A stretch of DNA of 64,000 bases from an uncultured Candidatus Kuenenia sp. (GTDB taxonomy: Bacteria > Planctomycetota > UBA11346): contig CAZZJC010000025.1 in the NCBI GenBank assembly GCA_964654285.1, positions 1,046 through 65,045 of the forward strand, read 5' to 3'. The notes below the pieces were generated by a model, which saw only the letters and a program-made list of their open reading frames with translations, made no database searches and was not told the DNA's origin. The position numbers were made by a program, and so were the translations under genes. This document shows positions 2,645 to 44,261 of this stretch, piece by piece (the stretch's first letter is position 1; each line of letters opens with the position of its first letter).

Positions 2645-2838
2645 ATTCGCGGGCCATAGCTGGCGGATTGGCGTCAGAAAAAGCCGGGCAATCTCCCAAA
2701 GAACTTCCCTGCTGCGCGGGGTTCCGGCTGCGCCGGAAGAGACGGCTTGGCCGTCCCAAGTTCTTGTTTGTCCGGGGCTGGCCGCCCCCGTAACGCGCCT
2801 CCGGCGCTCCCCCGTGCGCAGCCTGACGGCTGCTCACG

Positions 2839-3078
2839 TCAGAAGGAATGCTTTGCCCTGATTTCCGCAATATGCCGGGCGGTTGATGCGGAATGCTTCG
2901 ATTGCAGGGCTTTGTCGAAGATGCTGGCCAGCACGCGTTTTTCATCCGCGTCGATGACGTTGTCGGCCAGGGCGAGGCCCATCAGGAAATTGATTTCATT
3001 CTCATCCAATCGACCGTCATCGGTAAAGCATTTGATCGAACTCAAGGCCAGGTGCAGGTGGGATTTGATTTGGCTCAT
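2839..3078 (-). CDS. Small TerB-like helical protein
   Basis: 79 aa. GAGGAA Shine-Dalgarno about 7 nt upstream. DGRLDENEINFLMGLALADNVIDADEKRVL resembles TerB/DjlA-N type domains. Weak family call. Confidence 0.5.
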   Translation of the reverse strand: MSQIKSHLHLALSSIKCFTDDGRLDENEINFLMGLALADNVIDADEKRVLASIFDKALQSKHSASTARHIAEIRAKHSF

Positions 3079-3175
3079 GGGGAGGTTCCTCGGTTGGTTG
3101 ACTCATGGTGGGGCGCGGTTTGGGTCCGTCCAGGATCGCGGTCATGCCGGTCATGGCTGCCGGATGCACGCGACG

Positions 3176-4108
3176 CTATTCGATCTTCAGCGTCAGGGCC
3201 GGGCCGGTGGCATTCAGGGTGACGGTTCCGCCACCTTCGTAGACGACCAGGGAATAGCGCTGGGAACCCTGGTCGCGGCGATGGGCGTCGCGGTCGGGGA
3301 AGATGGCGACCGGTTCAGGTGGGGACTTGGCCTTGTCAGGCAGATCGGCCACGAAGGGGGGCAGCATCCGCCAGGTCACCTGGGCGAGGAATTCCTGGGG
3401 AGGGGCGCCCGGGGGCAGGTTTTTCGCCGGTGCCGGAGCGGTGGCAGGTGAGATCAGGTTGAAAGTCAGACGGCGCGAGGTCTTCCCCGGTTCGGGGGCG
3501 ATGCGCAGGGTGACGGCCTGCTTGGGCTTGTCCTGGTCGGGGAAGGTGAATTTCCGCTTGGCGGTATCCAGGTTCGCCCCATCGACGGTGATCTGCTTGA
3601 GGTCGAAGCCGGGCTGGTTGCCGGGAAACTGGAGGTCCACCGTCACCTCGGAGCGGATGGTGCTCAGGGTCGCGGTTCCTCCGGCGCTGGGGAAGGCGAG
3701 TTGCGTGCGCTTGCCTGGGCGGAGATCTTCAGCCGTGCCATCGGGGCGGGCAATCTGCGCCACGACGGCAGTCTCGTCGGCCCCTGCCGTGCTGACCCCG
3801 AGGCTGAGGGTGCGGGTGCGCGCGGGTTTCGCCGCGTCGGGCGCGACCCGCAGGGTCACCACGTTGCCGGGCAGGACGAAGGTGCGCTTGCCGGTGTCCA
3901 GGGTGGCGCCGTCGACGGTGATCTGCTTCAGATCGAATCCGGGCTGGGTCCAGGCCAGGGCGCCATCGATCGCGCCCATGAAGGCCGGCGGTTCGTAGCT
4001 CTCGCCGGCGGCCGGTTTCTTGGCGTCGTGGTTGCGGCTGCCCAGGTACAGGCTGGCGCCCCAGGCGAGGACGAGCAGCACCAGGATGACGATCACCGGC
4101 TTGGGCAT
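3176..4108 (-). CDS. Signal-anchored protein with an internally duplicated module (last large gene of the CIS operon)
   Basis: 310 aa. N-terminal hydrophobic anchor (VIVILVLLVLAWGASLYL). Module QPGFDLKQITVDGAxLDTxKRxF...TLRxAP occurs twice. Start is 12 nt after the stop of the preceding gene. Confidence 0.65.
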   Translation of the reverse strand: MPKPVIVILVLLVLAWGASLYLGSRNHDAKKPAAGESYEPPAFMGAIDGALAWTQPGFDLKQITVDGATLDTGKRTFVLPGNVVTLRVAPDAAKPARTRTLSLGVSTAGADETAVVAQIARPDGTAEDLRPGKRTQLAFPSAGGTATLSTIRSEVTVDLQFPGNQPGFDLKQITVDGANLDTAKRKFTFPDQDKPKQAVTLRIAPEPGKTSRRLTFNLISPATAPAPAKNLPPGAPPQEFLAQVTWRMLPPFVADLPDKAKSPPEPVAIFPDRDAHRRDQGSQRYSLVVYEGGGTVTLNATGPALTLKIE

Positions 4109-4120
4109 GCGGGGCTCGGG

Positions 4121-5164
4121 CTATTTCTTCTGGGGCTGGATCGGAACCGCCACCGGCTGGTCCATGCGCCGGATGGTGCCCTCGGCCACGCCCTGCTGGA
4201 AGGTGCCCATCACCGCCTGGCGTTCGATGGACGACAATTCCCTGGTCAGGCGGCGGTTCACCGTGAGTTTGACCAGCGATTCCTTGTCGACCAGGGTGCC
4301 GGCCGCAGGCACCTGGCCGAGGATGACCCCGTCGGCGATCTTGGGATTGCCGGTGGTGGCGATCGCATAGCGCAGCTGGGACTTCTGCATCTCTGCGTCG
4401 GCTTCCCGCAACGGCCTGCCGGTCAGCGTCGGCACCTTGATCTTGATGTCAGGCGTGCCGACGGGCGGCAGGCCAGGACGCTGGGCGATGATCAGGTTCA
4501 CCAGCTCGCCGGCCTCGACCGTCGCTTCGGCGGCCGGATCCTGGCTGAGGACGGTCTCGTCGTTGTGCGTGGTGTCGGGCTTGTAGTTGATGCTGCCCAC
4601 GCGCAGGGCCGAGGAGCGGATGCGGGTTTCTGCCTCGCTCAACGCCAGGCCCTCCAGCTTCGGCATGGCGAGCTTGGGCGGCGGGGGTGGCGGCGGCGGC
4701 TCCTGCATGGCGAGGATGATCGCGACGGCTCCGCCGACCACGATGATCGCGCCGATCAGGCTGAAGATGATCCAGGCCGGGAAGGGCGGCTTCACCTGCG
4801 CCTCGGGCACGGTCACGCTCAAGGATGGGCTGCGCGCGACATCGCCGTCGGGATTCGCGGTGTTGAGGGCGAGGACGTTGAAGCGGTAGGTGCCCGGAGC
4901 CGGCCGCTGCGCGGCGGAGACGCGCAGCCGGTAGGTGACGCTGTCATTGGTCCGGATGTCGAGTTCGGGCGCCTGGCTGGGCAGCTCGCGGCCGTCCTCG
5001 CTGAGCAGCCGCGCGGTCAGGCCCGGCGTCCCGCCTTCGATCAGGGTGCGCGCGGTCTGGGTGAAGCCGCTGCCGTTGCCGACGCGGATCTCGAACTCCG
5101 CCGTGAGGTCGGGGCCGAGGATGCGGTTGTCCGAGGAGGCGCTGACGGTGAAGGAGGTGGGCAT
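4121..5164 (-). CDS. CIS-associated bitopic membrane protein: Ig-like (CARDB-like) N-domain, TM helix, 2 PASTA repeats
   Basis: 347 aa with no signal peptide. N-domain ends ...PGTYRFNVLALN.... TM helix is WIIFSLIGAIIVVGGAVAIILA, followed by a poly-Pro run. Two PASTA-type repeats (MPKLEGLALSEAETRI...VLSQDPAA and VPTLTGRPLREADAEM...ILGQVPAAGT). Confidence 0.8.
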   Translation of the reverse strand: MPTSFTVSASSDNRILGPDLTAEFEIRVGNGSGFTQTARTLIEGGTPGLTARLLSEDGRELPSQAPELDIRTNDSVTYRLRVSAAQRPAPGTYRFNVLALNTANPDGDVARSPSLSVTVPEAQVKPPFPAWIIFSLIGAIIVVGGAVAIILAMQEPPPPPPPPKLAMPKLEGLALSEAETRIRSSALRVGSINYKPDTTHNDETVLSQDPAAEATVEAGELVNLIIAQRPGLPPVGTPDIKIKVPTLTGRPLREADAEMQKSQLRYAIATTGNPKIADGVILGQVPAAGTLVDKESLVKLTVNRRLTRELSSIERQAVMGTFQQGVAEGTIRRMDQPVAVPIQPQKK

Positions 5165-5227
5165 GGGATTTTGCTCGGGTGGCCGGTGGCAGGTGGGCTG
5201 GCAGGCAGGCGCGATCGCGGTCGGAAC

Positions 5228-7360: not shown

Positions 7361-7370
7361 GGGTGCGCTG

Positions 7371-8117
7371 CTATTGGTTGAATTGCCGGGCCGGCGTCGG
7401 CTTGCGCGTGGGCGTCGTCTCGACCGGCTTCACCGGCGTCTTCTCGACCGCCGCCGGCTTGGCGGGGACGGCCTCGGGCCGCGACGCGGTTTCGTGCGGC
7501 GTCGCGGGCGTGCTGGCGGGTTCTGCCTTGGGCGGCTCTCTGCGCGCGGGTTCCGCCGCCGCCGGTTCGGATTTCGCCGGTTCCGGTCTGGCCGGCGCGG
7601 GTTTTTCCTCGCCTGGCGTCCTGGGCGATTCCTTGCTTTCAGGCTTGGCTGGTCCGGCCGGTTTGGCCGGTTCGGCCGGCCGGGTCAGGGCGAACCACAG
7701 CAGGGTGCTGGCGGTGGCGAGCATCAGCACCCCGAGCAGCACCAGCCACCACGGGAAGCCCGGCGGCGGGGGCGCGGCCTGATGCATGGCCGCGACGGTC
7801 ACGGTGATCTCGGGGCCGTTGATCGCCGGTCCGCCTCCGGTCGGGACGAGATCGAGGCGGAAGCGGTAGCCGCCGGCCGCGACCGTCGGCGGCACCGCGA
7901 CCGCGACCAGGCAGATCCCGGTGGTGCCGGCATCGAGCTGCACCGTCGGCGTGGCGGCGGCGAGGGCGCCGGCCAGTTCGCGGTCGAGGGCGACCGGGGT
8001 CGGCGTCACCTGGGCCGGCTCGCCGCCGCGATTGGTCAGGCTGAACACGACCCGCCCGCGCCGGGTGGCCGGATCGAGGTTCAGGCTGACGCTGGCGGTC
8101 TCGGCGAGGACGTTCAT
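7371..8117 (-). CDS. CIS-associated bitopic membrane protein: Ig-like N-domain, TM helix, Pro/Ala/Lys/Glu-rich tail
   Basis: 248 aa. N-domain has the same pattern (...SLTNRGGEPAQV...AAGGYRFRLDLV...). TM helix is WWLVLLGVLMLATASTLLWFAL. About 105 aa of PAKPE-type low complexity follows. 4-nt overlap with the upstream gene. Confidence 0.7.
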   Translation of the reverse strand: MNVLAETASVSLNLDPATRRGRVVFSLTNRGGEPAQVTPTPVALDRELAGALAAATPTVQLDAGTTGICLVAVAVPPTVAAGGYRFRLDLVPTGGGPAINGPEITVTVAAMHQAAPPPPGFPWWLVLLGVLMLATASTLLWFALTRPAEPAKPAGPAKPESKESPRTPGEEKPAPARPEPAKSEPAAAEPARREPPKAEPASTPATPHETASRPEAVPAKPAAVEKTPVKPVETTPTRKPTPARQFNQ

Positions 8118-8632
8118 GCGGCGGCGACCAGCTCGTGGGTGACGTGCGCCGGCTTGGCGAGTTCGATGACGGCCTCCATCAGGGGGCGCTGGCCGGCGCA
8201 GGCGGCGGGATGGCGGATGCAGAGGTGGTGCAGCCGGGGACGGCCATCGGCGCCGAGGTTCTCGGCGATGGCGAAGCCGTCGTGGCCGGTGGCGAGGCGG
8301 AGGAAGCGCAGCATGCCCGAGCGGGTTCCGCGCCAGCGCGCGAGGTCGTGGGCCTGGGCGACCAGTTCGCGCAGCCGGGCGGGATCGGTCACCGCGGCGC
8401 GGTTGCCCAGCGCGGGCAGGAAGCGCGCCAGGTCGACCCAGCGGGCGAGGAATGGGACGAACGATTCCGGGGCGCGACGGGGGTCGAGATATGCATCGAT
8501 GTCGGCCAGGATCCGCTCATCCTTGCGCATCAGTCCGGCCATGACCTCGACCAGGCCGTCGCTGATCGTACCCGGGGTCGCGGTCTGGCTGACCACGGCC
8601 GGCAGCAGCTGGAGGATCTGATCGCGGGTCAT
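8114..8632 (-). CDS. Phage tail protein I-like baseplate wedge protein (Afp12-type N-domain)
   Basis: 172 aa from ATG 8632 (ATGA overlap with the stop of 8629-9222). LLPAVV...DPRRAPESFVPFLARWVDL...ARWRGTRSGMLRFLRLATG matches the tail-protein-I signature. The 269-aa upstream extension is rejected. Confidence 0.8.
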   Translation of the reverse strand: MTRDQILQLLPAVVSQTATPGTISDGLVEVMAGLMRKDERILADIDAYLDPRRAPESFVPFLARWVDLARFLPALGNRAAVTDPARLRELVAQAHDLARWRGTRSGMLRFLRLATGHDGFAIAENLGADGRPRLHHLCIRHPAACAGQRPLMEAVIELAKPAHVTHELVAAA

Positions 8633-9222
8633 GGGGTCGGCCCTTGCGGCTCGTGCGGGGTTGCGGATGGGGCGCCGGAATAGGCTGAGAATTCCGAGTA
8701 TTTCTGCGATCGCCACCAGGCGAAGGCGGCCAGGCCGGCGACCGCGACCGCGGTGGCGAGCAGGACCAGTCCGGGCAGCCAGTCGACGGTGATCATCACC
8801 ACGATGGCCGCGATCGCGAGCAGGGCGGCGCTGTACGACGCCCAGACCCAGGCCGGTCGCACCGGCCAGATCGAACCGGATGCGGCGACCACCAGGGTGA
8901 GGGCCAGGGGCGGGCTGACCCATTCGTTCGGATTGTCGACCCCGACCGCGCGGATCTCACAGGTGTAGGTGCCGGGGGCGAGCTGCTGCGGCAGGTCGAT
9001 GCCCAGCGGCAGGCTGCGGCTGGCGCCGGGATCGAGGATGAACTCTTCACCCGCCAGGCTGAGCCCGCCCGGCGCCAGCGGCGGCAGCGGCCGGAGGTCG
9101 AGGCGCGTGCGCAGCGCGTCGCGGCCATCGTTGGCCACCTGCACCTGCATCTGGCCGCGGCGCAGCCCGGTGAGGGTGATGGAGGTCGAACCTGCGCTCA
9201 GGCGATAGGCGGCAAAAGGCAT
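8629..9222 (-). CDS. CIS-associated membrane protein: Ig-like N-domain plus two-helix hairpin anchor
   Basis: 197 aa. N-domain QVQVANDGRDAL...APGTYTCEIRAVGVDNP has the same pattern as the three downstream paralogues. Two hydrophobic helices. Encoded between the baseplate J and tail protein I genes. Confidence 0.7.
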   Translation of the reverse strand: MPFAAYRLSAGSTSITLTGLRRGQMQVQVANDGRDALRTRLDLRPLPPLAPGGLSLAGEEFILDPGASRSLPLGIDLPQQLAPGTYTCEIRAVGVDNPNEWVSPPLALTLVVAASGSIWPVRPAWVWASYSAALLAIAAIVVMITVDWLPGLVLLATAVAVAGLAAFAWWRSQKYSEFSAYSGAPSATPHEPQGPTP

Positions 9223-9291
9223 GGGGGAGGAAAGTAGGTCCGGGTCGGGCGGGTGGCAATGGTCGACGCGGCAGGCGGTGGCCAGGCGGGT

Positions 9292-12066
9292 TCAGGATTC
9301 CTCGGTGACATCGATGCGGTGGTATCCGGCGCAGAACAGCCAGGTCGGCGGCAGCGGCAGCTTGTCGAGGTAGGTGCGCTGCGAGCAGGCCGAGAAGCGC
9401 AGGCCCTCGCTGGCGCGGAACACCCCTTGCGCGCCTCCGGCCAGCAGGTGCGTCCCGCTGTCGTCGGCGGCGATCGTCTCGACCGGCAGGTGCGTGCCCT
9501 GTTCCGACGTGCTGCGCAGCGGCAGGCCGCAGTCCTGGGCCGAGACGACCCAGGCCGCGTCGGGCTGGCTGAAATCGAAGGCCAGCACGCCCGACCGGTA
9601 CGAGGCGGCATAGACCCGGTTGCCGGCAAAGGTCAGCGCCTTGCAGGTGCCGCCGTTCCAGCCCTTGCTCGCCCAGCGCCAGGCCGGCGGCGGCGGGTTG
9701 CTGCGATCCGCCGGCACGGCGGCGAGCGGCAGTTCGCCGACCAGGGTGCCCTTGCCGGGATCGTTGCCGATCGATGCCAGGCCCGCCCACAGGTGGTAGC
9801 GGTTGCCGGTGGCCTGGACTTCCAGCACGCGGATGTCGAGGTCTTTCAGGCCGATGTGGGTGAAGGAGCCGGTGCGCCCGCCCTGGTAGGAGAGGTAGAC
9901 CCCGCCCAGGGCCTCGGCCGCCACCGCGACCGCGAGCACCCCGCCGTGGCTGGCGGTGGCGACGGCGTAGAAGCGCTGATCCGGCTTCTGGGCGTCGACC
10001 AGGACGAGTTCCGGGATCGCATCGGCGACCGGGGTGAGCGAGATCAGCCCGTGGTCGGAGGCGAGGAAGAGCGTCGGCACACCATCGCGCACGGCCCAGG
10101 CGCCGTCTTCCAGGATGAACGAGGTGCGGCAGGGAGCGCTCCAGGTCTGACCGTAATCCTTGGAGAAATACACGCGGCCGGCGCGGCTTGGGGCGGGCGG
10201 CGCAGGCGGCTTCGCAGCGGCATCCGGCTTCGCTGGCGTGTCCGGCTTCGTCGGGGTCAGGGCCGGAGCCGGCTTGGCGGGATCCGCTTTCGCCGCGTCG
10301 GCCTTGGCGGACTCCAGCCGGGCCGATTCCGCCTTCGCCGGATCGGCCGGCGCGACCGGGGCGGGCACGGTGACGCTGATCGCGGCGACCAGACCGGGCA
10401 CCTGGGGATGCGGGAAGATGCGCAGGATGCGTTCGCCGGGGAAGGTCGTCGCGAGTTCCCAGCCGGCGCCGTCGTTGACCGAGACGAACAGGCGTTCGCC
10501 GCTGCCAGCGTACCAGGTGTGCGGCTTGAAGGAATCCGCCGCCAGGGCGCCGACGTCGGCCGCCGGGGCCTGGTCGACCTCCAGCGCGATGCCCTCGACG
10601 TAGGCGACCCCGGGCACGGCCAGGATGGCGTCGTAGACCTGCGAGGCGCGCAGCGGCGCCCCGAAGTCGCGTCCGGGGGCGCCGTCGCGCGCGAGCGGAT
10701 CGAGGCGGCGGTCGATCGCCGCGCCGACCTTGGCGCGGATCGCATCCGCATCGGTGTGGCGGCGGGTGACCACCCGGGCCGCGACCGCGACCTGCTTGCA
10801 GGGCACCCAGGCGATGCGGATGGCCGAGCCCAGCGGCCGGCATTCGTCGAGCGCCCGCGTCACCGCGTCGAGGGCGGCGTCGGTCTGCAGCGCGGCGATC
10901 TCGGCCCGGGTCGGGCGGCGCGGCGGCCCGGCCGGCGGCCGCGGCACCAGCAGCACGTCGACCGTGCCCGGGTCGCAGCCGGGATAGACCTGCGAACGGG
11001 TGTAGGCCTTGGCCCGGCTGACCAGGTCGCGGCAGCGGTTGACCGCGATCAGCTCGTAGTCGAGCGCGGTCACCGCGCGGCGCAGGGAATAGAACTCGAA
11101 CGGGCCGCGTTCGCTGGCGTTTTCCAGGGATTCCGCCTCGCGTCCGCCGGTCGCCGGCTGCGGGTTGGCGACCGCCAGGCCGCCGACCCCGGGCAGGGGC
11201 CGGACCAGGCGGGTCAGGGATCCGCCGGGCAGGTTGCCGCTCGGGCCGCCGCCGGCGTGGTACCAGAGGCGGATCCGGCGGCCTTCGCCCGGATAGGCCC
11301 CGAGCGCGCTCGCGCGTTCGGCGAGGACGCCGGGATCGGCGGGATCGCGCAGCCGGGCCGAGCCGGGGAAGTACACCCGGCCGAGCTGCCGGTCGACGAT
11401 GCAGGCGCAGGTGTCGGCGCCGAGGTCGGTGAAGTCGTCGACCTCGCGCCAGAGGCGGTAGGTGACGCCGTCCTCCTCGCGCAGGGCCATGCCCTCGCGC
11501 AGCTCCTCGCGCGCGATCTCGACCCCGATCGCGAACGGATCGTCGGCGCCCAGGCGGGCGACGATCGGGGCGCGCTTGGCCTCGACGACCTGGCCCGGCT
11601 TGCCGGTGCCCGTGCCGGCGGCCTCGCTGATCGCGGTGGCGTGGATGGCGCGGATCGTGACCCGGTCGGATCCGGCCGGGATGGTCGCGGCGGTCAGGGT
11701 GGTGAACACCGCCGGCTGGCCGCCGCTCTCGGCGCGGTTGGCGGCGACCTCGGTCCCGGCCGGGATGACCACCGCGGCCGGGGCCGGGGCGGCGAGGCTG
11801 AACACGAGGTCGACCCGCGCCGCCGAGGGCGGATGCAGGCGCAGGCCCAGGAGGCGCAGGAACTCGATGTAGGCCTTCTCCGGCAGCCGGTTGAGCCGGT
11901 AGAGCATGGTCTCGGTCAGGTGCGCGAAGAGCTCGAGCAGCACCACCCCGGGATCCGAGGCCGAGTTCGCGCTCCAGGCGGTGCCGCGCTCGGCGAGGAT
12001 CCGGCGCGCTTCGGCCAGGAGCTGGTCGAAGGTGCGGTCATCGAGATTCGGGACGGGCAGGGACAT
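9292..12066 (-). CDS. Baseplate J-like protein (Afp11-type) fused to an Asp-box beta-propeller-like C-terminal region
   Basis: 924 aa. N-terminus (NLDDRTFDQLLAEARRIL...DPGVVLLELFAHLTETMLYRLNRLPEKAYIEFLRLLG) is typical of phage-tail-region baseplate assembly proteins. C-terminal ~400 aa has Asp-box-like motifs (SVNDGAGW, SKDYGQTW) and a PA-rich insert. Confidence 0.9.
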   Translation of the reverse strand: MSLPVPNLDDRTFDQLLAEARRILAERGTAWSANSASDPGVVLLELFAHLTETMLYRLNRLPEKAYIEFLRLLGLRLHPPSAARVDLVFSLAAPAPAAVVIPAGTEVAANRAESGGQPAVFTTLTAATIPAGSDRVTIRAIHATAISEAAGTGTGKPGQVVEAKRAPIVARLGADDPFAIGVEIAREELREGMALREEDGVTYRLWREVDDFTDLGADTCACIVDRQLGRVYFPGSARLRDPADPGVLAERASALGAYPGEGRRIRLWYHAGGGPSGNLPGGSLTRLVRPLPGVGGLAVANPQPATGGREAESLENASERGPFEFYSLRRAVTALDYELIAVNRCRDLVSRAKAYTRSQVYPGCDPGTVDVLLVPRPPAGPPRRPTRAEIAALQTDAALDAVTRALDECRPLGSAIRIAWVPCKQVAVAARVVTRRHTDADAIRAKVGAAIDRRLDPLARDGAPGRDFGAPLRASQVYDAILAVPGVAYVEGIALEVDQAPAADVGALAADSFKPHTWYAGSGERLFVSVNDGAGWELATTFPGERILRIFPHPQVPGLVAAISVTVPAPVAPADPAKAESARLESAKADAAKADPAKPAPALTPTKPDTPAKPDAAAKPPAPPAPSRAGRVYFSKDYGQTWSAPCRTSFILEDGAWAVRDGVPTLFLASDHGLISLTPVADAIPELVLVDAQKPDQRFYAVATASHGGVLAVAVAAEALGGVYLSYQGGRTGSFTHIGLKDLDIRVLEVQATGNRYHLWAGLASIGNDPGKGTLVGELPLAAVPADRSNPPPPAWRWASKGWNGGTCKALTFAGNRVYAASYRSGVLAFDFSQPDAAWVVSAQDCGLPLRSTSEQGTHLPVETIAADDSGTHLLAGGAQGVFRASEGLRFSACSQRTYLDKLPLPPTWLFCAGYHRIDVTEES

Positions 12067-12114
12067 GGTCGGATCCGTTCGCAGGGGCAGGGCGGGGGCG
12101 GCGGCGGGGGCGGA

Positions 12115-12543
12115 CTAGCGACGGGCTTCGGGCAGGTCGCCGCCGAGATCGACGGCGAAGCGCAGGGCGTGGGTGGAGGCGTTCGCGCGCACCCGGTAGT
12201 CGAGCTGGATCGCGAGCGCCTCGGGGTGGGCGGGATCGGCGCCGGCATCGAGGGCGATGATCTCGACCCGGGGCTCCCAGCGTTCGACCGCCTGGCGGAT
12301 GAAGTGCATCGCCAGCCCGGCGGTGGTGTCGTCGTTGGGCAGGAATGCGAGCCGGCGCAGGTCGCAGCCGTAGTCGGGCCGCATCACCCGTTCGCCCGGC
12401 GTGGTCGACAGCAGCATGAGCAGCGCCTGGCGGATCTCGGCCTCGCCGTCGATCAGCGCCACCGCGCCGAGCGCGCTGGTCTGCGGCCCGCCGGCATGCG
12501 CCGCAGCATCGAGACCCGGAAAGGCGAAGCGCCAGGCGGTCAT
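12115..12543 (-). CDS. GPW/gp25-family baseplate protein
   Basis: 142 aa from ATG 12543. IRQALLMLLSTTPGERVMRPDYGCDL is the gp25 signature. The upstream extension of the 195-aa ORF runs through the repeat element and is rejected. Confidence 0.9.
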   Translation of the reverse strand: MTAWRFAFPGLDAAAHAGGPQTSALGAVALIDGEAEIRQALLMLLSTTPGERVMRPDYGCDLRRLAFLPNDDTTAGLAMHFIRQAVERWEPRVEIIALDAGADPAHPEALAIQLDYRVRANASTHALRFAVDLGGDLPEARR

Positions 12544-12630
12544 GGCAGATAACTCGACACACGGCTCGTTTGCGATCCTAGACCAAACCATGGATCCGTC
12601 TTCAGAACAACGTCTCCCAAGGATGAAATG

Positions 12631-12732
12631 AAAAATCGCAAGTGTGCCCCAGATGCAAGGCGGGAGGAAGGAGTGTGGCAGCGCCACATGACTGACGACC
12701 AACGCCGCAGATGGGGTGCAATTGCGATTTTT
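12631..12732 (-). repeat. 102-nt palindromic A5...T5 element, copy A (MITE-like, possibly a bidirectional terminator-like hairpin)
   Basis: Reverse complement differs from 30796-30897 at 4 of 102 positions (hand alignment). Its ~22-nt termini are inverted repeats of each other. Strand label only records orientation relative to copy B. Confidence 0.85.
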
Positions 12733-12736
12733 CCGA

Positions 12737-13093
12737 TCACTTCTGGCATACGAACCCCTGTCCTGCGTGCTTCACGGTGTATTTCACGGTTCCCGGCGGA
12801 GTGCCGTCGGTCAGGCCGGTCAGGGTGTCGAGGCAGACCGCCTTGCCGTCGACGAAGACCAGGTCGGACCAGCCGCCGGTGACGTTCACCACCGCGGTGC
12901 AGGGCTTGATCGTCATGCCGACGTTGGGGCAGCCGGCGATCGGGCGGCCGATCGGCTGGGTCTGGACCACCACCGCGCGGCCGTCGATGAAGACGAACGA
13001 CTGGCCCGGGATCGGGGACTGGCCGGGGACGATGCCGACGATGCCCATGACATGGGCGCAGCAGACGAGGGCGGAATCGGTGACCACGAGCAT
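12737..13093 (-). CDS. PAAR-like (DUF4280-type) spike-tip protein
   Basis: 118 aa directly downstream of the spike gene (6-nt gap). Cys pattern ...AGCPNVGMTIKPCTAVVNVTGGW...GKAVCLD...HAGQ fits PAAR-like/DUF4280 proteins. Confidence 0.7.
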   Translation of the reverse strand: MLVVTDSALVCCAHVMGIVGIVPGQSPIPGQSFVFIDGRAVVVQTQPIGRPIAGCPNVGMTIKPCTAVVNVTGGWSDLVFVDGKAVCLDTLTGLTDGTPPGTVKYTVKHAGQGFVCQK

Positions 13094-13099
13094 GGCGGC

Positions 13100-14563
13100 T
13101 CAGCCCTTCTCGAAGTCGATGCGCGCGGCGCGCAAGGTGAGGGTCGATCCGGGGGCGTCGAGCAGCAGGTTGCCGGCGGCGTGCAGGCGGACGCCGTCGC
13201 CGGCCAGGGAGAGACGGTGCCCGTCGCGGTGTTCGAGCAGCACCTGGCCGCCTTCGTCGTCGAACCACAGGCGGTGGCCGCCGGGGGCGATCCAGCCGGC
13301 CCGGCGCACGCGGCTGCCGGCCACGGCGGTCTCGGGCTGGCCCGCTTCGCTCCAGAGTCCGCCCAGCACCACGGCGCGGGCGGGATCGCCGCCCAGCGGC
13401 AGGACGAGGACGTGGTCGCCGACCTCGGGCGTCGCCACCAGGCCGCGGCCGGGGCCGGCGACCGGGCAGAGCACCTGCAGCCAGTCGCTCTCGGCCTCAC
13501 CCAGGGCGTCGTAGGTCACGCGCACGCGGGCGAGCCCGTCCGGGTCGGCGACATCGCTCACCCGGCCGATGAAGGCGGTGGCCGGCCGGCCGGGCGCCGG
13601 CGCATTCGGCAGGGCGGTGTCGAAGCGGACGCGGTAGCCGCCGGCGTCGATGGTGTGCTCGGCGTGCATCACCGTCCAGGTGCCGCCGAGATCGGCGGGC
13701 ACCCCGCGCAGGTCGAGCCGTGCCGCCGGGGCGATGCGGGTGTCGCCCACCGCGGTGCCCCAGAGGGTCGCCGCCGCCGCCGCGCGGCGGTCGAGCGCGG
13801 CCTGGGCCAGGGCCTCGGCCTGATCCGAGTCCTCGACCACCAGTCCGGCCAGGGCGAGCGCGGTCGTGGCCGCCGGTTCGCCGGCGATGGCGCGCGGCAG
13901 GCGCGGGCTGGCGGCGCTGCCGGCACGGGTCACGGCGCGGAACGGATCCCAGCCGGTGGCCGAGGCGCTGGTCGCGCCGGCGGCGGGATGGGTCTCGGCG
14001 TCGAGTTCGATCAGCCCTTCGCCCAGGGTGAGGGGGACGGGGTCGCCGTGGCCGCCGGGGCCGACCAGGCGCAGGGTGTCGCCGTCGCCGACGAGCCACA
14101 GGCCGACACGCGCGGCGACCTCGGTCAGCACCGCGAAATCGCTCTCGCCGCGCTGGACGATGCGGGCCCAGCGCGGACCCGGTTCGGCGGTGGCGGCGCT
14201 GAGGCCGTGCGCGCCGGCGAGGCGCTCGGCGAGGTCGCCGGCGGTCATCGCGGCATAGGCGGTGGTCTGGCAACGCCCGCGCAGGCGCTGCAGGGCGTCG
14301 TAGGCGCGCAGGCGGCACTGCCCGGCCTGGCCGGGGCGCAGGCGCCGGTGCACGGCGGCCAGGGTGCCGTTGAAGAGCGGCTTCGCCTGCCCAGCCACGC
14401 CCACCCGCACCTGCGCCTCGGCGCCGGCCTCGACCGCATCGGTGAAGACCAGTTCGCACTGCGCGGGCAGGCCCAGGCACTGCACGACGCGGACCGATTC
14501 CAGCCGCGCGGTGGCCGGGACGCCGTCGAGCTCGACCGTGACCAGCGGGGCCGGCAGGGTCAT
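13100..14563 (-). CDS. gpD/VgrG-like central spike (late control D plus gp5 OB-fold)
   Basis: 487 aa from ATG 14563 (ATGA overlap). FIGRVSDVADPDGLARVRVTYDALGEAESDWLQVLCPVAGPGRGLVATPEVGDHVLV is the classic VgrG/gp5 OB-fold stretch. No C-terminal effector extension. Confidence 0.9.
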   Translation of the reverse strand: MTLPAPLVTVELDGVPATARLESVRVVQCLGLPAQCELVFTDAVEAGAEAQVRVGVAGQAKPLFNGTLAAVHRRLRPGQAGQCRLRAYDALQRLRGRCQTTAYAAMTAGDLAERLAGAHGLSAATAEPGPRWARIVQRGESDFAVLTEVAARVGLWLVGDGDTLRLVGPGGHGDPVPLTLGEGLIELDAETHPAAGATSASATGWDPFRAVTRAGSAASPRLPRAIAGEPAATTALALAGLVVEDSDQAEALAQAALDRRAAAAATLWGTAVGDTRIAPAARLDLRGVPADLGGTWTVMHAEHTIDAGGYRVRFDTALPNAPAPGRPATAFIGRVSDVADPDGLARVRVTYDALGEAESDWLQVLCPVAGPGRGLVATPEVGDHVLVLPLGGDPARAVVLGGLWSEAGQPETAVAGSRVRRAGWIAPGGHRLWFDDEGGQVLLEHRDGHRLSLAGDGVRLHAAGNLLLDAPGSTLTLRAARIDFEKG

Positions 14564-15369
14564 GCGGTCTCCAGCAGGGCGCGGGCGACCGCCTCGGGCG
14601 CGGGCAGGCGCAGCACGGTGCCGCCGGGCAGGGCCTGCGGATCGGCGAGGTCGTTGGCCGCCGCGATGAGCCGCCAGTAGGCGGGGTCGCCGTAGAGCCG
14701 CGCCGCGAGCAGGTCGAGCCGCTCGCTGTCGCCCAGGCGCACGGTGGCGGCGGGTTCCTGGCTGAGCGCCGCGCCGACCGCGACCGCGGCGGCGGGCTCG
14801 GGGGCGGGCGCCACCGGGGCGGCGGTGTTCGGCACCAGGACGCGGAGGAAGCGCAGGCGCAGCCAGGATCGGCGCGGCGCGCCATCGGGAGCGAAACGCT
14901 CCAGCCGCTGCGCCACCGCGGCGACCACCCCGGGCAGGTTCCAGCGTTTGCCCCAGATCACCCGCACCAGCGGCAGTTCGACCCGGCCGGCCTCGTTGCG
15001 TGCGTGCTCGGCGAGGGCGAAGAGGGGGGCGGTGAGCTGGCGCACGTCGACGATCGGGCGGTCGTCGACGCGGGTCGGATCGGGGTCGGACATGCGCCGC
15101 CGTACCGTGTCCTGGTTCCAGCGTTCGTCCGCGACGGTCGCATGCGCGCCGGCGAGGTCGACATCGAAGAGCAGATCGAGCTGCCATTCCGTGCGTCCGC
15201 CTCCGGTCGCCGCGAGCGGCGCGTCGGCGGCGTCGCCCGGTTCAGCGGCCGAGATGCCCGGCTCGCGTGTCGCGAGGCCCGCCCAGCGGCGGATCTCCAG
15301 CGACTCCGGGTTGAGCAGGCACGGGATGCGGCTGCCGGTCGATTCGACCAGGATGATCACGCGTTCCAT
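14560..15369 (-). CDS. Tube-initiator-like protein with C-terminal LysM (gpX/Afp7-type)
   Basis: 269 aa. N-terminus (ILVESTGSRIPCLLNPESLEIRR) is typical of CIS tube-fold proteins. C-terminal LysM (VRLGDSERLDLLAARLYGDPAYWRLIAAANDLADPQALPGGTVLRLP). Confidence 0.85.
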   Translation of the reverse strand: MERVIILVESTGSRIPCLLNPESLEIRRWAGLATREPGISAAEPGDAADAPLAATGGGRTEWQLDLLFDVDLAGAHATVADERWNQDTVRRRMSDPDPTRVDDRPIVDVRQLTAPLFALAEHARNEAGRVELPLVRVIWGKRWNLPGVVAAVAQRLERFAPDGAPRRSWLRLRFLRVLVPNTAAPVAPAPEPAAAVAVGAALSQEPAATVRLGDSERLDLLAARLYGDPAYWRLIAAANDLADPQALPGGTVLRLPAPEAVARALLETA

Positions 15370-16568
15370 GGTTCACCTGCCTGTTCCTGGCGCAGCCGCG
15401 CGCGGTGCTCGGCGGCGAAGGGATCCGCCGCGACGGGCGCGGGATCGGCGGGAGGGAGCTCCGGCCAGCGGGAAGGGGGCATGGGCGGAGCGGGATGCTC
15501 GGGAATGGTCAGGGCAGGCCAGGGGGACGGCGCCTCAACGCCCGGTCTTCCTGGGAGCGCCGGCGTCCCGCCGGCCGGATCGACGGACGCCGGAGGATGC
15601 CACCGGCCTGATTTCGCGTCGACCTGCGGGCCGGGAGCGGACGGGGCGGATCGCTCGGGCCTGGTGGATCCGGGGGTGTGGGACGGGAACGGTCCGGATC
15701 GGGCGGGGGCGGTACCGGTGGACTGGTCAGGCTGGCGCCTGGCGGTCGCGGGGTCGTGGGATGGGGCTGGTTCGGGCTGGGCGGGGCTCGTGGATCGGTC
15801 GGGCTGGTGCCTGGCGCTCCCTGGATCGCGGGACGGAGTTGGTTTCCGCAGGCTGCCGGCGGGGATCTCTTCGACGAGCGAACGGATGACGACCGGGCGA
15901 CGTTCACGTCGGGGCGGTACGACCGGGTCTGCCTTCCCTGGGACGGCCGGTTTCCAACCGGCAGGCAGCACGGGAGATTCCGTCTCACGGACCGGATCCG
16001 CCTTCCCTGGGACCGCCGGTGTCCAACCGGCAGGCAGCACGGAAGACCCTGATGGATCCACGTTGTCCGGATGCGCCTTCCCAGGGACCGCCGGTGTCCA
16101 ACCGGCAGGCACCGCGGGAGATTCCTCAGTCGGGATCGCTCTGACGCGGACGGGCTTTCCCCGGTGGACGTTGCTGACAGCGGGTTGCCATGGCGCGGAG
16201 GATGGGTTTCCAGCCCGCTTGGCTGGGGTGGTCGGCGGCGGCGGGCGGCGAACGGTTGCTTCGCCTGCCGGTTGCACACCGGTGGTCCCAGGACGGGCAC
16301 CTGCCGGTTGCACACCGGTGGTCCCAGGACGGGCATCCGGGGTCGGGGAATCCACCGGCTGTTCCCCTCGGCGTCCGGTCAATGCCAGCCAATGCGCCGG
16401 TGGCGGGGGCGGATAGACGTCGGGAAACGGCGGGGCGCGCTCAGGTTCGACGGCCTCAGGCGTGAGATCGCGTTCCAGCGCCACGAGCACCGCCCCGGTC
16501 CACGCGTGGACCGGGGCGACGAGGCGGACCAGGGTTCTGGCCAGGAAACGGCGCAGGGGGGCCGTCAT
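15357..16568 (-). CDS. Proline-rich tandem-repeat protein at the tape-measure position
   Basis: 403 aa. Starts 4 nt after the tube stop and overlaps the next gene by 13 nt. Repeats ARPGTTGVQPAG x2, PAGW(T/K)PAVPGKA(H/D)P x3, AR(H/R)QPD(R/Q)ST x2. Function inferred from position only. Confidence 0.6.
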   Translation of the reverse strand: MTAPLRRFLARTLVRLVAPVHAWTGAVLVALERDLTPEAVEPERAPPFPDVYPPPPPAHWLALTGRRGEQPVDSPTPDARPGTTGVQPAGARPGTTGVQPAGEATVRRPPPPTTPAKRAGNPSSAPWQPAVSNVHRGKPVRVRAIPTEESPAVPAGWTPAVPGKAHPDNVDPSGSSVLPAGWTPAVPGKADPVRETESPVLPAGWKPAVPGKADPVVPPRRERRPVVIRSLVEEIPAGSLRKPTPSRDPGSARHQPDRSTSPAQPEPAPSHDPATARRQPDQSTGTAPARSGPFPSHTPGSTRPERSAPSAPGPQVDAKSGRWHPPASVDPAGGTPALPGRPGVEAPSPWPALTIPEHPAPPMPPSRWPELPPADPAPVAADPFAAEHRARLRQEQAGEPWNA

Positions 16569-16572
16569 CGGC

Positions 16573-17028
16573 TCAGGCGCTGGCGCTGCCTTCGCTCACC
16601 TCGCGTTCGAGGTGGTCGAAGGCGATGCTCACGCTTTCGATCGCGACGGTGTTGGCGAGGCCATCCATCGGCTGGGCGCGCCAGCGGCTCGGCCAGGCCT
16701 CGTACAGGTTCCAGCGCACCTCGCGGCCGCTGCGCTGCGGATCGAGCAGGGCGATGGTCAGGTTCTGCTTGTAGCTGTCGGCGGACAGGGCCGCCTCGAA
16801 CCAGCGCCAGAGGTCGAGCGAGGTCGAGACGCCGTACCACAGTTCGAGTTCGGCATAGTCGACCCGGCCGCGCAGCTTGCGCACATGTTCGGAGCCGCCT
16901 TCGCGGTAGGCGATCGGCTCGATCCGGGCTTCGAGCCCGGTGATCGAGGTGAAATAGCCCTTGGCCTCGTTGCCGATGCGCAGGGCGAAGTTGTAGGAAC
17001 GGAACGGTTCGTTGCGGGGATCGGGCAT
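16573..17028 (-). CDS. Contractile-tail tube protein (T4 gp19 / Afp1-type)
   Basis: 151 aa. FRSYNFALRIGNEAKGYFTSITGLEARIEPIAYREGG is the conserved tube signature. Confidence 0.9.
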   Translation of the reverse strand: MPDPRNEPFRSYNFALRIGNEAKGYFTSITGLEARIEPIAYREGGSEHVRKLRGRVDYAELELWYGVSTSLDLWRWFEAALSADSYKQNLTIALLDPQRSGREVRWNLYEAWPSRWRAQPMDGLANTVAIESVSIAFDHLEREVSEGSASA

Positions 17029-17047
17029 GGGTGGCTTTCGTTGGGGA

Positions 17048-18307
17048 TTACTGGTGCTGCGCCTGGCCGGCGCTCTGGCTGATGCGGAAGATCACGAACT
17101 CGGCCGGGCGGATCACCGACAGGCCGACGAGGGTCACGACCTGGCCGGCCTGGATGACCTCCTCGGTGTTGGTGTCGGCATCGCATTTGACGAAGAACGC
17201 CTGTTCCGGCGTATCGCCGCGCAGCTGCCCCTGGGACCAGAGCAGGCGCAGGAAGCCGCTGATGTCGCGCCGGATCGCGTTCCACAGCGGTTCGTGGTTG
17301 GCCTCGAAGACGATCCAGCGGGTGTTCTCGCGGATCGACTTCTCGACCATGCTGACGAAGCGGCGCACCGGCACGTAGCGGTATTCGCTCGCCTCGTCGT
17401 CCAACGTGCGCGCGCCCCAGACCAGGATGCCCTGCTTGCTGAACGAGCGGATGATGTTCACCCCGCGCGGGTTCAGGCTGCCCTGGTCCTGGTCGTTGAG
17501 CTTGTGCACGACGCCGACCGCGCCGCGCAGGGTCTCATTCGCCGGGGCCTTGTGCACGCCGCGCACCGCGTCGGTGCGGGCGTAGACGCCGGCGAGGTGG
17601 CCGGAGGGGAACGCGGTGATGACGGTCGCGGGCGCGGCCTGTCCCGGCGCCGGACGGTGGAATTCCTTGAGCGGATCGTCGACCAGGATGGCCGGATAGT
17701 AGAACGCGCCGTAGCCGCCCTTGGAATTGCGCGGCCGCAGCCCCGTCTTGGCGGGAGCGGTCTCATCCTGGTCCTTCTTCTTGCGACCGCCGCCTTCGGC
17801 CACCGCCTCGCCGACTTCGCGCAGGGCGCCGAGATCGACAGGTTCCTTGGGCGGATCGAGGATGGCGACGCGGTCGCCGAGATTCTCGCAATGGGTGAGC
17901 AGCGCCTCGTAGTCGGCCGGGGCGATGCGGCCCGGCGCGGCGACGATGGCGACCTCGTCCTCGCGCGCGATGAGGTCGAGACCTTGGGCCAGGGTGCCCT
18001 GCTCGCCGAGGTTCACCACGAAGCAGCGGCCGCCGAGGTTGTCGAAGAAGCCGCGCACCGCGAGGGCGAGGTCGGTGGGATCGTTCTCACCCGCGGCTTC
18101 GCCCACGAATTCGCGGACGAACTGCATCCACGAGGTGATCGCCACGGCCTGCAGGCGGACCTGGCCGGAGGCGGTGGTGGTGACGTGGGCGCGCTTGCTC
18201 GGCGCGAGGCCGATGAAGGCGGCGGTGCGGGTGCCGACCGCCTGGATCGGGTGCGTGCCGGAGGAGACCTCCTCCACGTACACGCCAGGGTAAAGGTATT
18301 CAGGCAT
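17048..18307 (-). CDS. Contractile-tail sheath protein
   Basis: 419 aa. N-terminus YLYPGVYVEEVSSGTHPIQAVGTRTAAFIG and C-terminal RRDISGFLRLLWSQGQLRG are typical sheath motifs. GGAGA about 7 nt upstream of the ATG. Confidence 0.92.
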   Translation of the reverse strand: MPEYLYPGVYVEEVSSGTHPIQAVGTRTAAFIGLAPSKRAHVTTTASGQVRLQAVAITSWMQFVREFVGEAAGENDPTDLALAVRGFFDNLGGRCFVVNLGEQGTLAQGLDLIAREDEVAIVAAPGRIAPADYEALLTHCENLGDRVAILDPPKEPVDLGALREVGEAVAEGGGRKKKDQDETAPAKTGLRPRNSKGGYGAFYYPAILVDDPLKEFHRPAPGQAAPATVITAFPSGHLAGVYARTDAVRGVHKAPANETLRGAVGVVHKLNDQDQGSLNPRGVNIIRSFSKQGILVWGARTLDDEASEYRYVPVRRFVSMVEKSIRENTRWIVFEANHEPLWNAIRRDISGFLRLLWSQGQLRGDTPEQAFFVKCDADTNTEEVIQAGQVVTLVGLSVIRPAEFVIFRISQSAGQAQHQ

Positions 18308-18364
18308 CGGGATCTCCGGGGTTGGGATGCGGGTTGGGGGTGAGGGGAATGGAGAGTGGAGCGT

Positions 18365-19084
18365 TCACGGATCCGGAACGGTCAGATCGAGCCGCGTCGG
18401 CAGCGGATCCGGCAGGTCGAGCGGGACGAGGCGCCCGCGCACGTCGGCGGTCAGGCGGGTCGGCGCGGGAACGCCCGCGAACGACAGGGTGAAGCCGCCG
18501 TCGTGGCCGGTGCGCACCGGCTCGCCCGCCCCGGAGACCGGAACACCCACCAGCGGATGCCCGGCGGCGGTGCGCAGCCGGCCGTGGATCTGCCGGCGCG
18601 TGGCCTGGTGCAGGACGAGCGGTTCGAGGACGATGCCGGGCAGCGGATCCGGCCGGGCGCGCAGGACGAGCAGGCGCAGGCCGAGCGCAGGCAGCGGCGG
18701 CAGCCCGTGCGCCTGCCACCAGGCGGGTGGCGGGGTCTCGGGATCGGGTTCGCTGCTCTCGGGCAGGACGGGTTTGCCGGCCTGGAGCGCGAAGGCGAGT
18801 TCGCCCAGCCGGTCGTGGGCGGCGGGGTCGGTGCCGCGCGCAGCCAGGACGAAGTGGGCCTGGATGGCGAGGGGCGGCCGGGCGCCCGGACCGCCCAGGC
18901 GCGGTGGCGCGGTCGAGAGGCCGCGCAGCAGGCAGAGCAATCCGGCGCTGCCGGATTCGGCGCCGGTCGCCACCGCGCAGCCGGGAACGACGCCGCCCAT
19001 CCAGGCCACGATCTGCCGGGTGGCCTCGCCCAGCGTGCTGGGCGGTCCAGGTGGACCCGGCGGATTGACGGCAGCCTTGGGCAT
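18365..19084 (-). CDS. DUF4255 (Pvc16/Afp16-type) cap/terminator-like protein with CarboxypepD_reg-like C-domain
   Basis: 239 aa from ATG 19084 (an alternative GTG lies at 19150). PLAIQAHFVLAARGTDPAAHDRLGELAFALQAGKPVL fits the DUF4255 core. C-terminus is GRLRTAAGHPLVGVPVSG...GGFTLSF. Confidence 0.72.
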   Translation of the reverse strand: MPKAAVNPPGPPGPPSTLGEATRQIVAWMGGVVPGCAVATGAESGSAGLLCLLRGLSTAPPRLGGPGARPPLAIQAHFVLAARGTDPAAHDRLGELAFALQAGKPVLPESSEPDPETPPPAWWQAHGLPPLPALGLRLLVLRARPDPLPGIVLEPLVLHQATRRQIHGRLRTAAGHPLVGVPVSGAGEPVRTGHDGGFTLSFAGVPAPTRLTADVRGRLVPLDLPDPLPTRLDLTVPDP

Positions 19085-27240: not shown

Positions 27241-27430
27241 TCGGGGCGCCCACCCAAGAACCCGCCGCAATCGGTAACAGCACCGTCGATGGCCACAGGG
27301 AACGCAAAGGCCACCAATCGCCATCCCATGTGATCCATGTGCTCACTGTGGCCATCCCCCCCTGCGCTTCCCTGCGCGAGTGATTAGGCAGGGTCTTGCG
27401 GACCGGCCGTCGATCCCATGCTGCGCACCC

Positions 27431-27601
27431 GTCCAGGTTCCCCCGCTCAGCGGGGGCGAAGAGGGAAGCCGGTGGGGGCGATAGCCCGAATCCGGCGCGG
27501 ACCCGCCACTGTAACCGGGGACCGTCGGCGAGGCCACTGCACGGTAACGTGTGGGAAGGCGCCGGACGGGATGAACCGGAAGTCAGGAGACCTGCCTGGA
27601 C
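27431..27601 (+). promoter_or_regulatory. Cobalamin (B12) riboswitch
   Basis: P1 helix GTCCAGG (27431-27437) / CCTGGAC (27595-27601). Conserved cores AGGGAAGCCGGTG, AATCCGGCGCGGACCCGCCACTGTAA and GCCACTG...GGGAAGGC. B12 box GAAGTCAGGAGACCTGCC. Lies upstream of the TonB-dependent receptor. Confidence 0.88.
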
Positions 27602-27768
27602 CTGTCGACGCGGCCCTCGGGGATGGGCACGGTCGGACGCAGGCATCCGCCTGCCCCGCCGTGTTTGTTCGCGATGGCCGGTCGGCTGGATGACCGCGAG
27701 CGTGGTGCTCGCGGCATCACCACCCGAGCGCCTCGCCAGGGAACGGACCCTGGCCGGCAGGAGCCATC

Positions 27769-29757: not shown

Positions 29758-29765
29758 GGTGACGC

Positions 29766-30791: not shown

Positions 30792-30795
30792 ACTT

Positions 30796-42623: not shown

Positions 42624-42627
42624 CAGC

Positions 42628-44250: not shown

Positions 44251-44261
44251 CGGGGCTCAGC

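Follow-up and report, generated by a model that had tools for sequence, protein, structure and literature searches.

Can a contractile injection system (CIS) operate with no AAA+ ATPase, tail fibre or payload encoded beside it, and if so, on which side of the cell envelope does it act? This question is raised by an operon on the minus strand of contig CAZZJC010000025.1, from an uncultured Candidatus Kuenenia sp. of the Planctomycetota. The stretch analysed, here called the window, covers 64,000 nucleotides (positions 1,046 to 65,045 of the contig). A first-pass annotation made from the sequence alone had read the operon as a minimal CIS that probably acts from inside the cell while attached to the inner membrane. 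Extracellular CIS (eCIS) have been described to "invariably" encode an AAA+ ATPase (PMC10020575). The locus in the window is a lineage-II-type CIS that appears new in two respects: it lacks this ATPase, and it has its own conserved putative adaptor protein, in which an immunoglobulin (Ig)-like domain is followed by a transmembrane (TM) helix.

Components of the Injection Machine

Is the machine complete? Homology indicates that the locus encodes a full set of cap, sheath-tube, spike and baseplate parts. The components recognised in this way are the cap, the sheath, the tube, the tube initiator, the spike, gp25 and a wedge of Cis11-like and Cis12-like proteins (Table 1). When compared with the eight-component eCIS core of Chen et al. 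2019 (PMC6899500), tube, sheath, Afp7, Afp8, Afp9 and Afp11 were all found, and the Afp16 terminator (Pvc16_N/DUF4255) was recognised at the level of the family. These are also the parts that the locus shares with Afp, PVC and MAC. It differs from them in having no Afp15 ATPase, Afp13 fibre, Afp14-family tape measure or Afp6, no multiple sheath paralogues, and no DUF4157 or other toxin genes.

Among solved structures, the CIS of Streptomyces coelicolor (CIS-Sc, lineage IId) comes nearest, as it provides the top PDB match for each of five components, namely sheath, Cis11, Cis12, Cis7 and the Cis16 cap (8BKY, 9GTP, 9GTS); closeness is judged here by these top matches and not by a formal phylogeny. 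By this measure the structural proteins are of the Streptomyces type (lineage IId). The sheath matches 8BKY/9GTP with E = 3.8e-75, followed by the sheaths of the Anabaena thylakoid-anchored CIS (tCIS), Pvc2 and Afp2/3. The best match of the tube initiator is the LysM protein of 9GTP (E = 2e-6), and the sole PDB match of the Cis12-like protein is chain E of 9GTP (190 aa), which it covers over nearly its full length (E = 5e-5). The family profile of baseplate J matches S. coelicolor Cis11 (9GTP) with E = 5e-94 and BNR-repeat proteins at weak E-values; the window copy scores well above the TIGR02243 cut-off of 155.8 bits. The locus also resembles CIS-Sc in its cap-to-baseplate gene order, in having no fibres and no recognisable tape-measure family, and in encoding a bitopic membrane protein directly after the baseplate genes. 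In contrast to CIS-Sc, it has no Cis15 AAA+ ATPase, its sheath has 419 aa instead of 534, one tube gene stands in place of Cis1a and Cis1b, and the Cis11 of the family carries a C-terminal BNR propeller and has 860-924 aa instead of 652. The host, a diderm member of the Planctomycetota, also sets it apart from the Streptomyces system.

Some of these assignments hold for the family more firmly than for the single gene. The first-pass annotation had named the first gene a DUF4255 cap-like protein. On its own the window copy gives a non-significant E = 0.037 against Pvc16_N; the assignment nevertheless holds, because Pvc16_N was matched in 20 of 22 cap homologues (best 4e-10) and CarboxypepD_reg in all 22, and because the family profile matches S. 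coelicolor Cis16 (PDB 9GTS, E = 9e-9). The PAAR-like label given to the small Cys/His-rich protein was not confirmed, as PAAR_motif (0.019) and CIS_spike_tip (0.028) were each matched marginally by one of 23 members. This spike-tip candidate has no PDB or PHROG match, and a single-sequence AlphaFold2 (AF2) model of it was unusable, with a predicted local distance difference test (pLDDT) score of 38. It is present in all loci of the family (113-118 aa), where mean column identity reaches 58% and residues C12, H14, C55 and C65 are invariant. The spike protein itself has no C-terminal effector extension. The presence of only a single sheath gene and a single tube gene was borne out, as the window has no further paralogue of either.

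The 403-aa gene between tube and tube initiator gave an ambiguous signal of third-position G+C (GC3), which is explained by its 22% proline. In each full related locus, this gap is filled by one open reading frame (ORF) of 330-715 aa. The middles of these proteins differ, and the motifs GPPAHWL, WPELP and a terminal EQRGxxW are common to them. No match was found in Pfam, the PDB or PHROGs, even when 21 homologues were scanned. From its position, the protein may have a tape-measure-like role. The CIS-Sc cluster is likewise without a recognisable tape-measure gene (PMC12237407).

The wedge protein deserves mention for its length. Across the family, baseplate J carries a conserved BNR propeller of ~350 aa. 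The window copy reaches 924 aa because of a ~60-aa Ala/Pro/Lys-rich insert at the start of the propeller region (residues ~562-634, ~10177-10374), which is absent from the 860-aa relatives.

A Family Without an Adjacent ATPase

What is missing from the locus, and is it missing elsewhere? The first-pass annotation had reported no AAA+ ATPase, fibre, payload or T6SS (type VI secretion system) gene within reach. In the 64-kb window this was confirmed by domain scans of ~50 genes (essentially all), which revealed no AAA+ ATPase, fibre or toxin domain; TssB/C, TssJLM and ClpV were likewise found in none of the window genes. On the 3' side, where ~3 kb of sequence is visible beyond the operon, the statement rests on the relatives of the locus.

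These relatives were found by a pattern scan over one genome per species, and the best 80 loci were fetched from 419 matching genomes. The family therefore occurs in at least 419 species-level genomes. The best 80 loci belong to Myxococcota, Actinomycetota (many of them Micromonospora), Chloroflexota, Acidobacteriota, Planctomycetota, Nitrospirota, and Beta- and Gammaproteobacteria, and thus to at least seven phyla. Baseplate J alone has more than 1000 homologues of ~860 aa, the best of which is only 49% identical. In every full locus examined by local phmmer, the order of genes is cap, sheath, tube, ~400-aa gene, initiator, spike, tip candidate, gp25, baseplate J and Cis12-like. The family is large and horizontally spread.

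No Afp15-like AAA+ ATPase was found within 10 kb in the 80 related loci. When every ORF of 200 aa or more in these loci was scanned for Walker-A motifs, just two proved to be of the classic AAA+ type, namely Lon and FtsH, and each of them is encoded on the opposite strand. All-against-all clustering of the loci gave no further gene family common across phyla, lysis families included, and no effector-immunity pair, extended VgrG or extended tip protein was found in any of the 80 loci. Since it is common to the related loci, the absence of ATPase, fibre and payload genes next to the operon is a trait of the family and no accident of the window, and the earlier description of a minimal CIS is supported to this extent.

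Could the ATPase be encoded elsewhere? In a canonical eCIS with a split locus, an Afp15-like ATPase, fibres and payloads would act in trans. Split loci have been reported (PMC6899500), the search of this genome covered only the 64-kb window, and the CIS of S. coelicolor depends on the ATPase for its function (PMC10020575). We nevertheless regard a split locus as quite unlikely, as the ATPase is absent within 10 kb from 80 of 80 loci in at least seven phyla, and such consistent separation would be unexpected for an obligate partner. A published survey points the same way: it scored 0 of 2 Archangium, 0 of 16 Methylomonas and 0 of 4 Verrucosispora as eCIS-positive (PMC8213781), despite the occurrence of the family in these genera, though the surveyed strains are not matched to the loci. 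Deletion of the ATPase in S. coelicolor left particles that were still normal and contractile, with loss of the phenotype (PMC10020575). A missing ATPase is thus compatible with assembly, if not necessarily with function.

The conserved gene order also bears on whether the locus is the decaying tail module of a prophage. Its tail-like genes do have distant phage relatives. All reading frames are intact, however, and the gene order is the same in different phyla, whose loci lie in unrelated chromosomal surroundings. The 860-aa wedge protein has no full-length relative among 2.9 million viral contigs, the locus has no capsid, terminase or fibre gene, and the cap, tip-candidate, Cis12-like and Pro-rich proteins are without PHROG matches. 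The intact frames, the order kept across phyla, and the lack of a viral wedge relative and of capsid and terminase led us to reject this explanation, which we consider scarcely credible.

Why has such a family not been noted before? One metagenome survey filters on Cis15 (PMC12210884) and another requires at least ten core genes (PMC8213781). A family without the ATPase is likely to drop out of surveys because the ATPase has been used both as a definition of eCIS (PMC10020575) and as a survey filter (PMC12210884; see also PMC8213781). In the literature on CIS, of which our coverage is incomplete, no published description of an ATPase-less family with Ig/TM proteins was found. Up to 15% of the loci of Chen et al. 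do lack some core gene (PMC6899500). The family is apparently uncatalogued.

A Conserved Ig-Like Protein as Putative Membrane Adaptor

The gene order given in the first-pass annotation was nearly right, with the omission of one gene that lies between baseplate J and tail protein I (8629-9222). This gene belongs to a group of four paralogues in the window, which have in common an N-terminal domain of ~115 aa with a TM helix directly after it (Table 1). In 81 of 84 loci, the gene right behind the Cis12-like one was found by an iterated hidden Markov model (HMM) to encode the Ig-like and one-TM module, which is invariably N-terminal and precedes 77-640 variable residues. One relative (locus L039) has five adaptor paralogues in tandem. 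A profile built from the four window sequences of the Ig-like domain found 735 clusters among 1.84 billion representatives, with the domain mostly at residues 1-115; no homologues were retrieved with the 165 N-terminal residues of the adaptor. By its distribution, the Ig/TM protein is a conserved core component of the family.

How is the protein built and oriented? AF2 was run on an alignment of the four window paralogues, and the confident model of paralogue 4 (pLDDT 85) shows residues 5-119 as a beta-sandwich and residues 130-153 as a helix. Foldseek of the Ig-like domain retrieved only generic Ig/FnIII-like beta-sandwich folds and no known CIS or T6SS component. The count of lysine plus arginine is higher before than after the TM helix in 64 of 99 homologues and lower in 9, and a conserved KKPFPWW-type motif precedes the helix. 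The most economical reading of these features is a predicted topology with the N-terminus inside and the C-terminus outside.

Lineages differ in the outer domain, but the cytoplasmic domain is conserved among them. Outer domains in the relatives are PASTA repeats (25 loci), TolB-like PD40 propellers or lineage-specific regions. The propellers form the outer part of the adaptor in three Chloroflexota loci (L023, 7595-9259; L026, 14440-15819; L063, 4984-6660), the last of which also has one PASTA repeat. In the window, residues 130-346 of paralogue 3 align to positions 334-562 of PknB_PASTA_kin, which correspond to the TM helix and the outer part (E = 4e-38), and paralogue 4 matches the same model with 2.4e-17. 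The arrangement of a single TM helix followed by extracellular PASTA repeats is that of PknB/Stk1-type kinases. Unlike in these kinases, the ~115-aa Ig-like domain replaces the cytoplasmic kinase domain and the gene lies inside a CIS operon; no Ser/Thr kinase domain was found in the adaptor, in which only positions 334-562 of the model were matched and the N-terminus is an Ig-like sandwich. By analogy with PknB-type cell-wall sensors, the PASTA ectodomain would be a putative peptidoglycan-binding or -sensing module.

A precedent for a membrane adaptor exists in Streptomyces. The CIS of S. coelicolor is cytoplasmic, has no fibres and mediates stress-induced cell death (PMC12237407, PMC10020575). 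Its firing needs the bitopic adaptor CisA, which is encoded after the baseplate genes. The N-terminus of CisA is cytoplasmic, and a contact with Cis11 is predicted (PMC12237407). According to that description, this N-terminus is disordered and the C-terminal domain is substrate-binding-like, whereas in the adaptors described here the cytoplasmic domain is a folded Ig-like one and the outer domains are of the PASTA or PD40 type. Other eCIS-like particles that act attached to a membrane inside the producer are the Anabaena thylakoid-anchored CIS (PMC8894136) and T6SS subtype iv. The window sheath matches that of Anabaena (PDB 7B5H) with E = 1.8e-53 and is of a different lineage. Anchoring in Anabaena is reportedly achieved through extensions of baseplate proteins and not through separate Ig/TM/PASTA proteins.

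The conservation of the adaptor bears on another explanation, in which the locus produces a released particle like a tailocin or an eCIS. The baseplate J propeller would then replace fibres as the receptor binder, and the membrane proteins would serve release, immunity or an unrelated envelope function. All the parts of a free particle are present, including the terminator cap, and the propeller sits on a peripheral wedge protein. R-type pyocins, which also function without an ATPase (PMC12210884), are similarly compact, with a single sheath and tube. Yet they have fibres, a lysis cassette and phage-type terminators, whereas the window cap is of the Pvc16_N type, and the similarity of the sheaths is remote (E = 1.9e-8). 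The window has no holin, endolysin or lysis cassette, and more generally neither the fibre nor the lysis domains of an R-type tailocin or prophage tail; no lysis family emerged from the clustering of the 80 loci either. The Ig/TM protein equals the structural genes in its degree of conservation and occupies the position of the fibre or CisA gene, and the nearest characterised relative is cytoplasmic (PMC12237407). A released particle is therefore judged unlikely, although it deserves to be kept in view.

Proposed Mechanism

Where, then, would the machine act? We favour, with a probability of about 55%, a complete machine of the Streptomyces CIS type (lineage II/IId-like) that has no dedicated ATPase, fibres or encoded toxin, and that is cytoplasmic, is coupled to the membrane by CisA-like adaptors and fires on the producer itself under envelope stress. 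In the proposed sequence of events, the Pro-rich protein with its conserved ends would set the length of the tube and the small Cys/His protein would cap the spike, while the particle assembles in the cytoplasm. The bitopic Ig/TM proteins would act as CisA-like adaptors, through whose Ig-like domains the particle docks at the inner membrane. The cytoplasmic Ig-like domain would meet the periphery of the baseplate, possibly at the Cis11 propeller, and the periplasmic domain (here PASTA) would bind or sense peptidoglycan. Docking, a cell-wall signal or both would trigger a single, non-recycled contraction, which would push the spike into the envelope of the producer itself, or right through it.

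The earlier claim of action inside the cell at the inner membrane gains circumstantial support from the conserved bitopic Ig/TM protein, its predicted orientation, the periplasmic-type outer domains, and the cytoplasmic CIS-Sc with its CisA; localisation and docking stay at the level of prediction. The weakest step is the direction of firing. Envelope-stress-triggered, self-directed firing is favoured over a T6SS-like attack on neighbours because no locus has effector-immunity genes or an extended spike or tip, because PASTA is a cell-wall-sensing module, and because the nearest characterised relative causes stress-induced cell death.

Could the machine instead be an outward weapon? Such a device would be anchored by the Ig/TM proteins, would strike neighbouring cells by firing across the envelope, and would have its effectors encoded outside the locus. 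The membrane-anchor architecture, the predicted peptidoglycan-binding periplasmic domains, and the presence of spike and (candidate) tip proteins would all suit it. We hold it to be very unlikely, since the locus has neither a TssJLM-like trans-envelope complex nor ClpV for recycling, and since effector-immunity pairs and extended VgrG or tip proteins are missing from all 80 loci. A T6SS in the strict sense was rejected for the want of a TssJLM-like complex, ClpV and an effector-immunity pair; the sheath, moreover, is one phage-type protein in place of the TssB/TssC pair.

Several points weigh against self-directed firing by a membrane-docked machine. The Ig-like fold is generic, and contact between this domain and the baseplate is putative. 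The C-terminal BNR propeller of Cis11 could just as well serve a released particle in binding its receptor. In S. coelicolor, biological function requires the ATPase (PMC10020575), and a system without its own may depend on one encoded elsewhere; the sequence past the 3' end of the operon is visible for only ~3 kb. Lastly, the choice between the producer and its neighbours as the target is a matter of pure inference.

In the broadest terms, the family may be a distinct and widespread class of CIS without an AAA+ ATPase, equipped with receptor-like adaptors of its own (a baseplate-binding Ig-like domain and PASTA or PD40 peptidoglycan sensors), in which the state of the cell wall gates firing. 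This generalisation is offered tentatively, and we would not bet on it as a whole. If it is true, diderm and monoderm bacteria alike possess a built-in puncturing device that is triggered by envelope damage. CisA links a cytoplasmic CIS to the membrane by way of a bitopic protein, and the adaptors described here would be another, unrelated case of this principle. Muropeptides or cell-wall damage are concrete candidates for the trigger, as the PknB-like PASTA ectodomain suggests. What is the ATPase for? A family that lacks it is a natural test of its purpose, and several of the carriers are culturable (Myxococcus, Archangium, Micromonospora and Methylomonas).

Operon Layout and Genomic Setting

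The first-pass annotation had described a single minus-strand run of genes with junctions mostly overlapping or under 20 nt. The analysis of GC3 phase and ORFs agrees, with an uninterrupted run from 19084 down to at least 3176 in a window of ~70% G+C. The 14 operon junctions measure 57, 19, 4, -13, -4, 6, 193, 48, 69, -4, -4, 10, 63 and 12 nt. Nine of the 14 are thus 20 nt or less, and the rest are 48-69 nt, apart from the one of 193 nt. The ATGA overlaps at 14560-14563, 8629-8632 and 8114-8117 and the 4-nt gap at 16569-16572 proved to be exact. In relatives such as L003, the tip-candidate and gp25 genes overlap, whereas the window has the 193-nt spacer between them, which could be an internal promoter or a regulatory insert.

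Both borders of the operon had been placed inside the window, which holds for the divergent 5' neighbour and the convergent 3' end. The run, however, probably continues past 3176 to a 79-aa ORF, so that the operon probably spans 2839-19084. A family search with this ORF gave no match. Downstream of it, the minus-strand hairpin (2699-2684) faces a plus-strand terminator-like hairpin at 2744-2762, and the pair marks the convergent border with a plus-strand membrane-protein gene. The 5' border is the divergent plus-strand gene that starts near 19369. Scans for sigma-70 promoters at both operon borders found none, which is uninformative for a Planctomycetota genome without visible Shine-Dalgarno (SD) sites. 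The 310-aa protein gave no significant family match and has a homologue only in L003, the closest metagenomic locus; it contains an internal duplication, in which QPGFDLKQITVDGAxLDTxKRxF... occurs twice.

Table 1. Features of the CIS operon in the order of transcription, with the evidence for each (window coordinates)
Feature	Coordinates	Strand	Evidence or remark
Cap / tail terminator (Cis16/Afp16-like)	18365..19084	-	divergent Pvc16_N (DUF4255) + C-terminal CarboxypepD_reg-like domain
Contractile sheath, single, 419 aa, short form	17048..18307	-	PF04984 + PF17482
Inner-tube protein, single, gp19/Cis1-Cis5 type, 151 aa	16573..17028	-	PF06841 3.9e-27; TIGR02241 98 bits, above cut-off
Pro-rich protein (22% Pro, 403 aa)	15357..16568	-	tape-measure position; function inferred from position only
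Tube initiator (Cis7/Afp7-like)	14560..15369	-	CIS_tube PF19266 1.4e-6; LysM-like Phage_tail_X PF05489 1.3e-4
Spike (VgrG/gpD + gp5 OB), 487 aa	13100..14563	-	PF05954 + PF04717; NF033848 (VgrG-related) 1.5e-29
Small Cys/His-rich protein, spike-tip candidate	12737..13093	-	Cis10 position; role rests on position
Intergenic spacer, AT-richer, 193 nt	12544..12736	-	between tip-candidate gene and gp25
Sheath initiator / wedge gp25 (Cis9/TssE-like)	12115..12543	-	PF04965 3.2e-24; TIGR03357 7e-9
Baseplate J wedge (Cis11/Afp11), 924 aa, C-terminal BNR-type beta-propeller	9292..12066	-	PF04865; TIGR02243 240 bits
Ig-like/TM adaptor paralogue 1, 197 aa, two hydrophobic segments	8629..9222	-	iterated Ig-domain HMM 1.7e-21; TM prediction
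Cis12-like wedge protein	8114..8632	-	Tail_P2_I PF09684 9e-7; TIGR02242 54.5 bits, above cut-off
Ig-like/TM adaptor paralogue 2, 248 aa, Pro/Ala/Lys-rich outer tail	7371..8117	-	Ig-domain HMM 1.8e-18
Ig-like/TM adaptor paralogue 3, 710 aa	5228..7360	-	Ig-like domain, TM helix, five PASTA repeats (1e-52), ~200-aa C-terminal region without assignment
Ig-like/TM adaptor paralogue 4, 347 aa	4121..5164	-	Ig-like domain, TM helix, two PASTA repeats (2.3e-17)
Signal-anchored protein, 310 aa	3176..4108	-	last large gene of run; not conserved in family
79-aa ORF	2839..3078	-	probably last gene of run; called as gene in Logan contig L002
Terminator-like hairpin with T-run	2684..2699	-	likely operon 3' end

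At the starts of the operon genes (e.g. 18307, 17028, 12066, 9222 and 5164), no SD-like purine tract was seen, and C-rich sequence (…CCC/CCG) lies directly upstream. This suggests SD-independent initiation in the host organism. A plus-strand gene at 167-1231, some 2 kb away from the operon's 3' end, encodes a REP-associated tyrosine transposase (RAYT/IS200-like Y1 transposase; NF047646, E = 4.6e-10, below cut-off). The divergent neighbour on the 5' side (19369-22581, plus strand) encodes a protein of 1070 aa that matches PF05875, the membrane ceramidase family, over its last 220 residues (1.4e-15), while the first ~790 residues gave no family match.

The rest of the window is housekeeping in nature and includes a TonB/ABC uptake operon, purA, uppS, a two-component system, nuoA-N, and FHA and kinase genes. 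NuoD puts the host among uncultured Planctomycetota, since its named matches, of 74-80% identity, are without exception Planctomycetes or Planctomycetota MAGs. On the plus strand, 24362-26209 encodes a cyclic-nucleotide-binding domain fused N-terminally to a Na+/sulfate (CitMHS/DctM-like) symporter, which suggests a cNMP-gated transporter. A cobalamin riboswitch at 27418-27613 (plus strand; Rfam RF00174, 117.7 bits) is followed by plus-strand genes for a TonB-dependent receptor, a FecCD permease, an ABC ATPase and a periplasmic binding protein (27769-32749), and together these look like a B12-regulated uptake operon. An FHA protein is encoded at 57023-57757. Separately, a very large signalling protein with FHA, PP2C/SpoIIE phosphatase and Ser/Thr kinase domains is cut by the end of the window (60415-63999, plus strand). 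The minus-strand nuoA-N operon at 41136-56802 is complete; its nuoF and nuoG are separated by a 196-aa ORF without assignment (50814-51404), and NuoE (344 aa) carries a long C-terminal extension.

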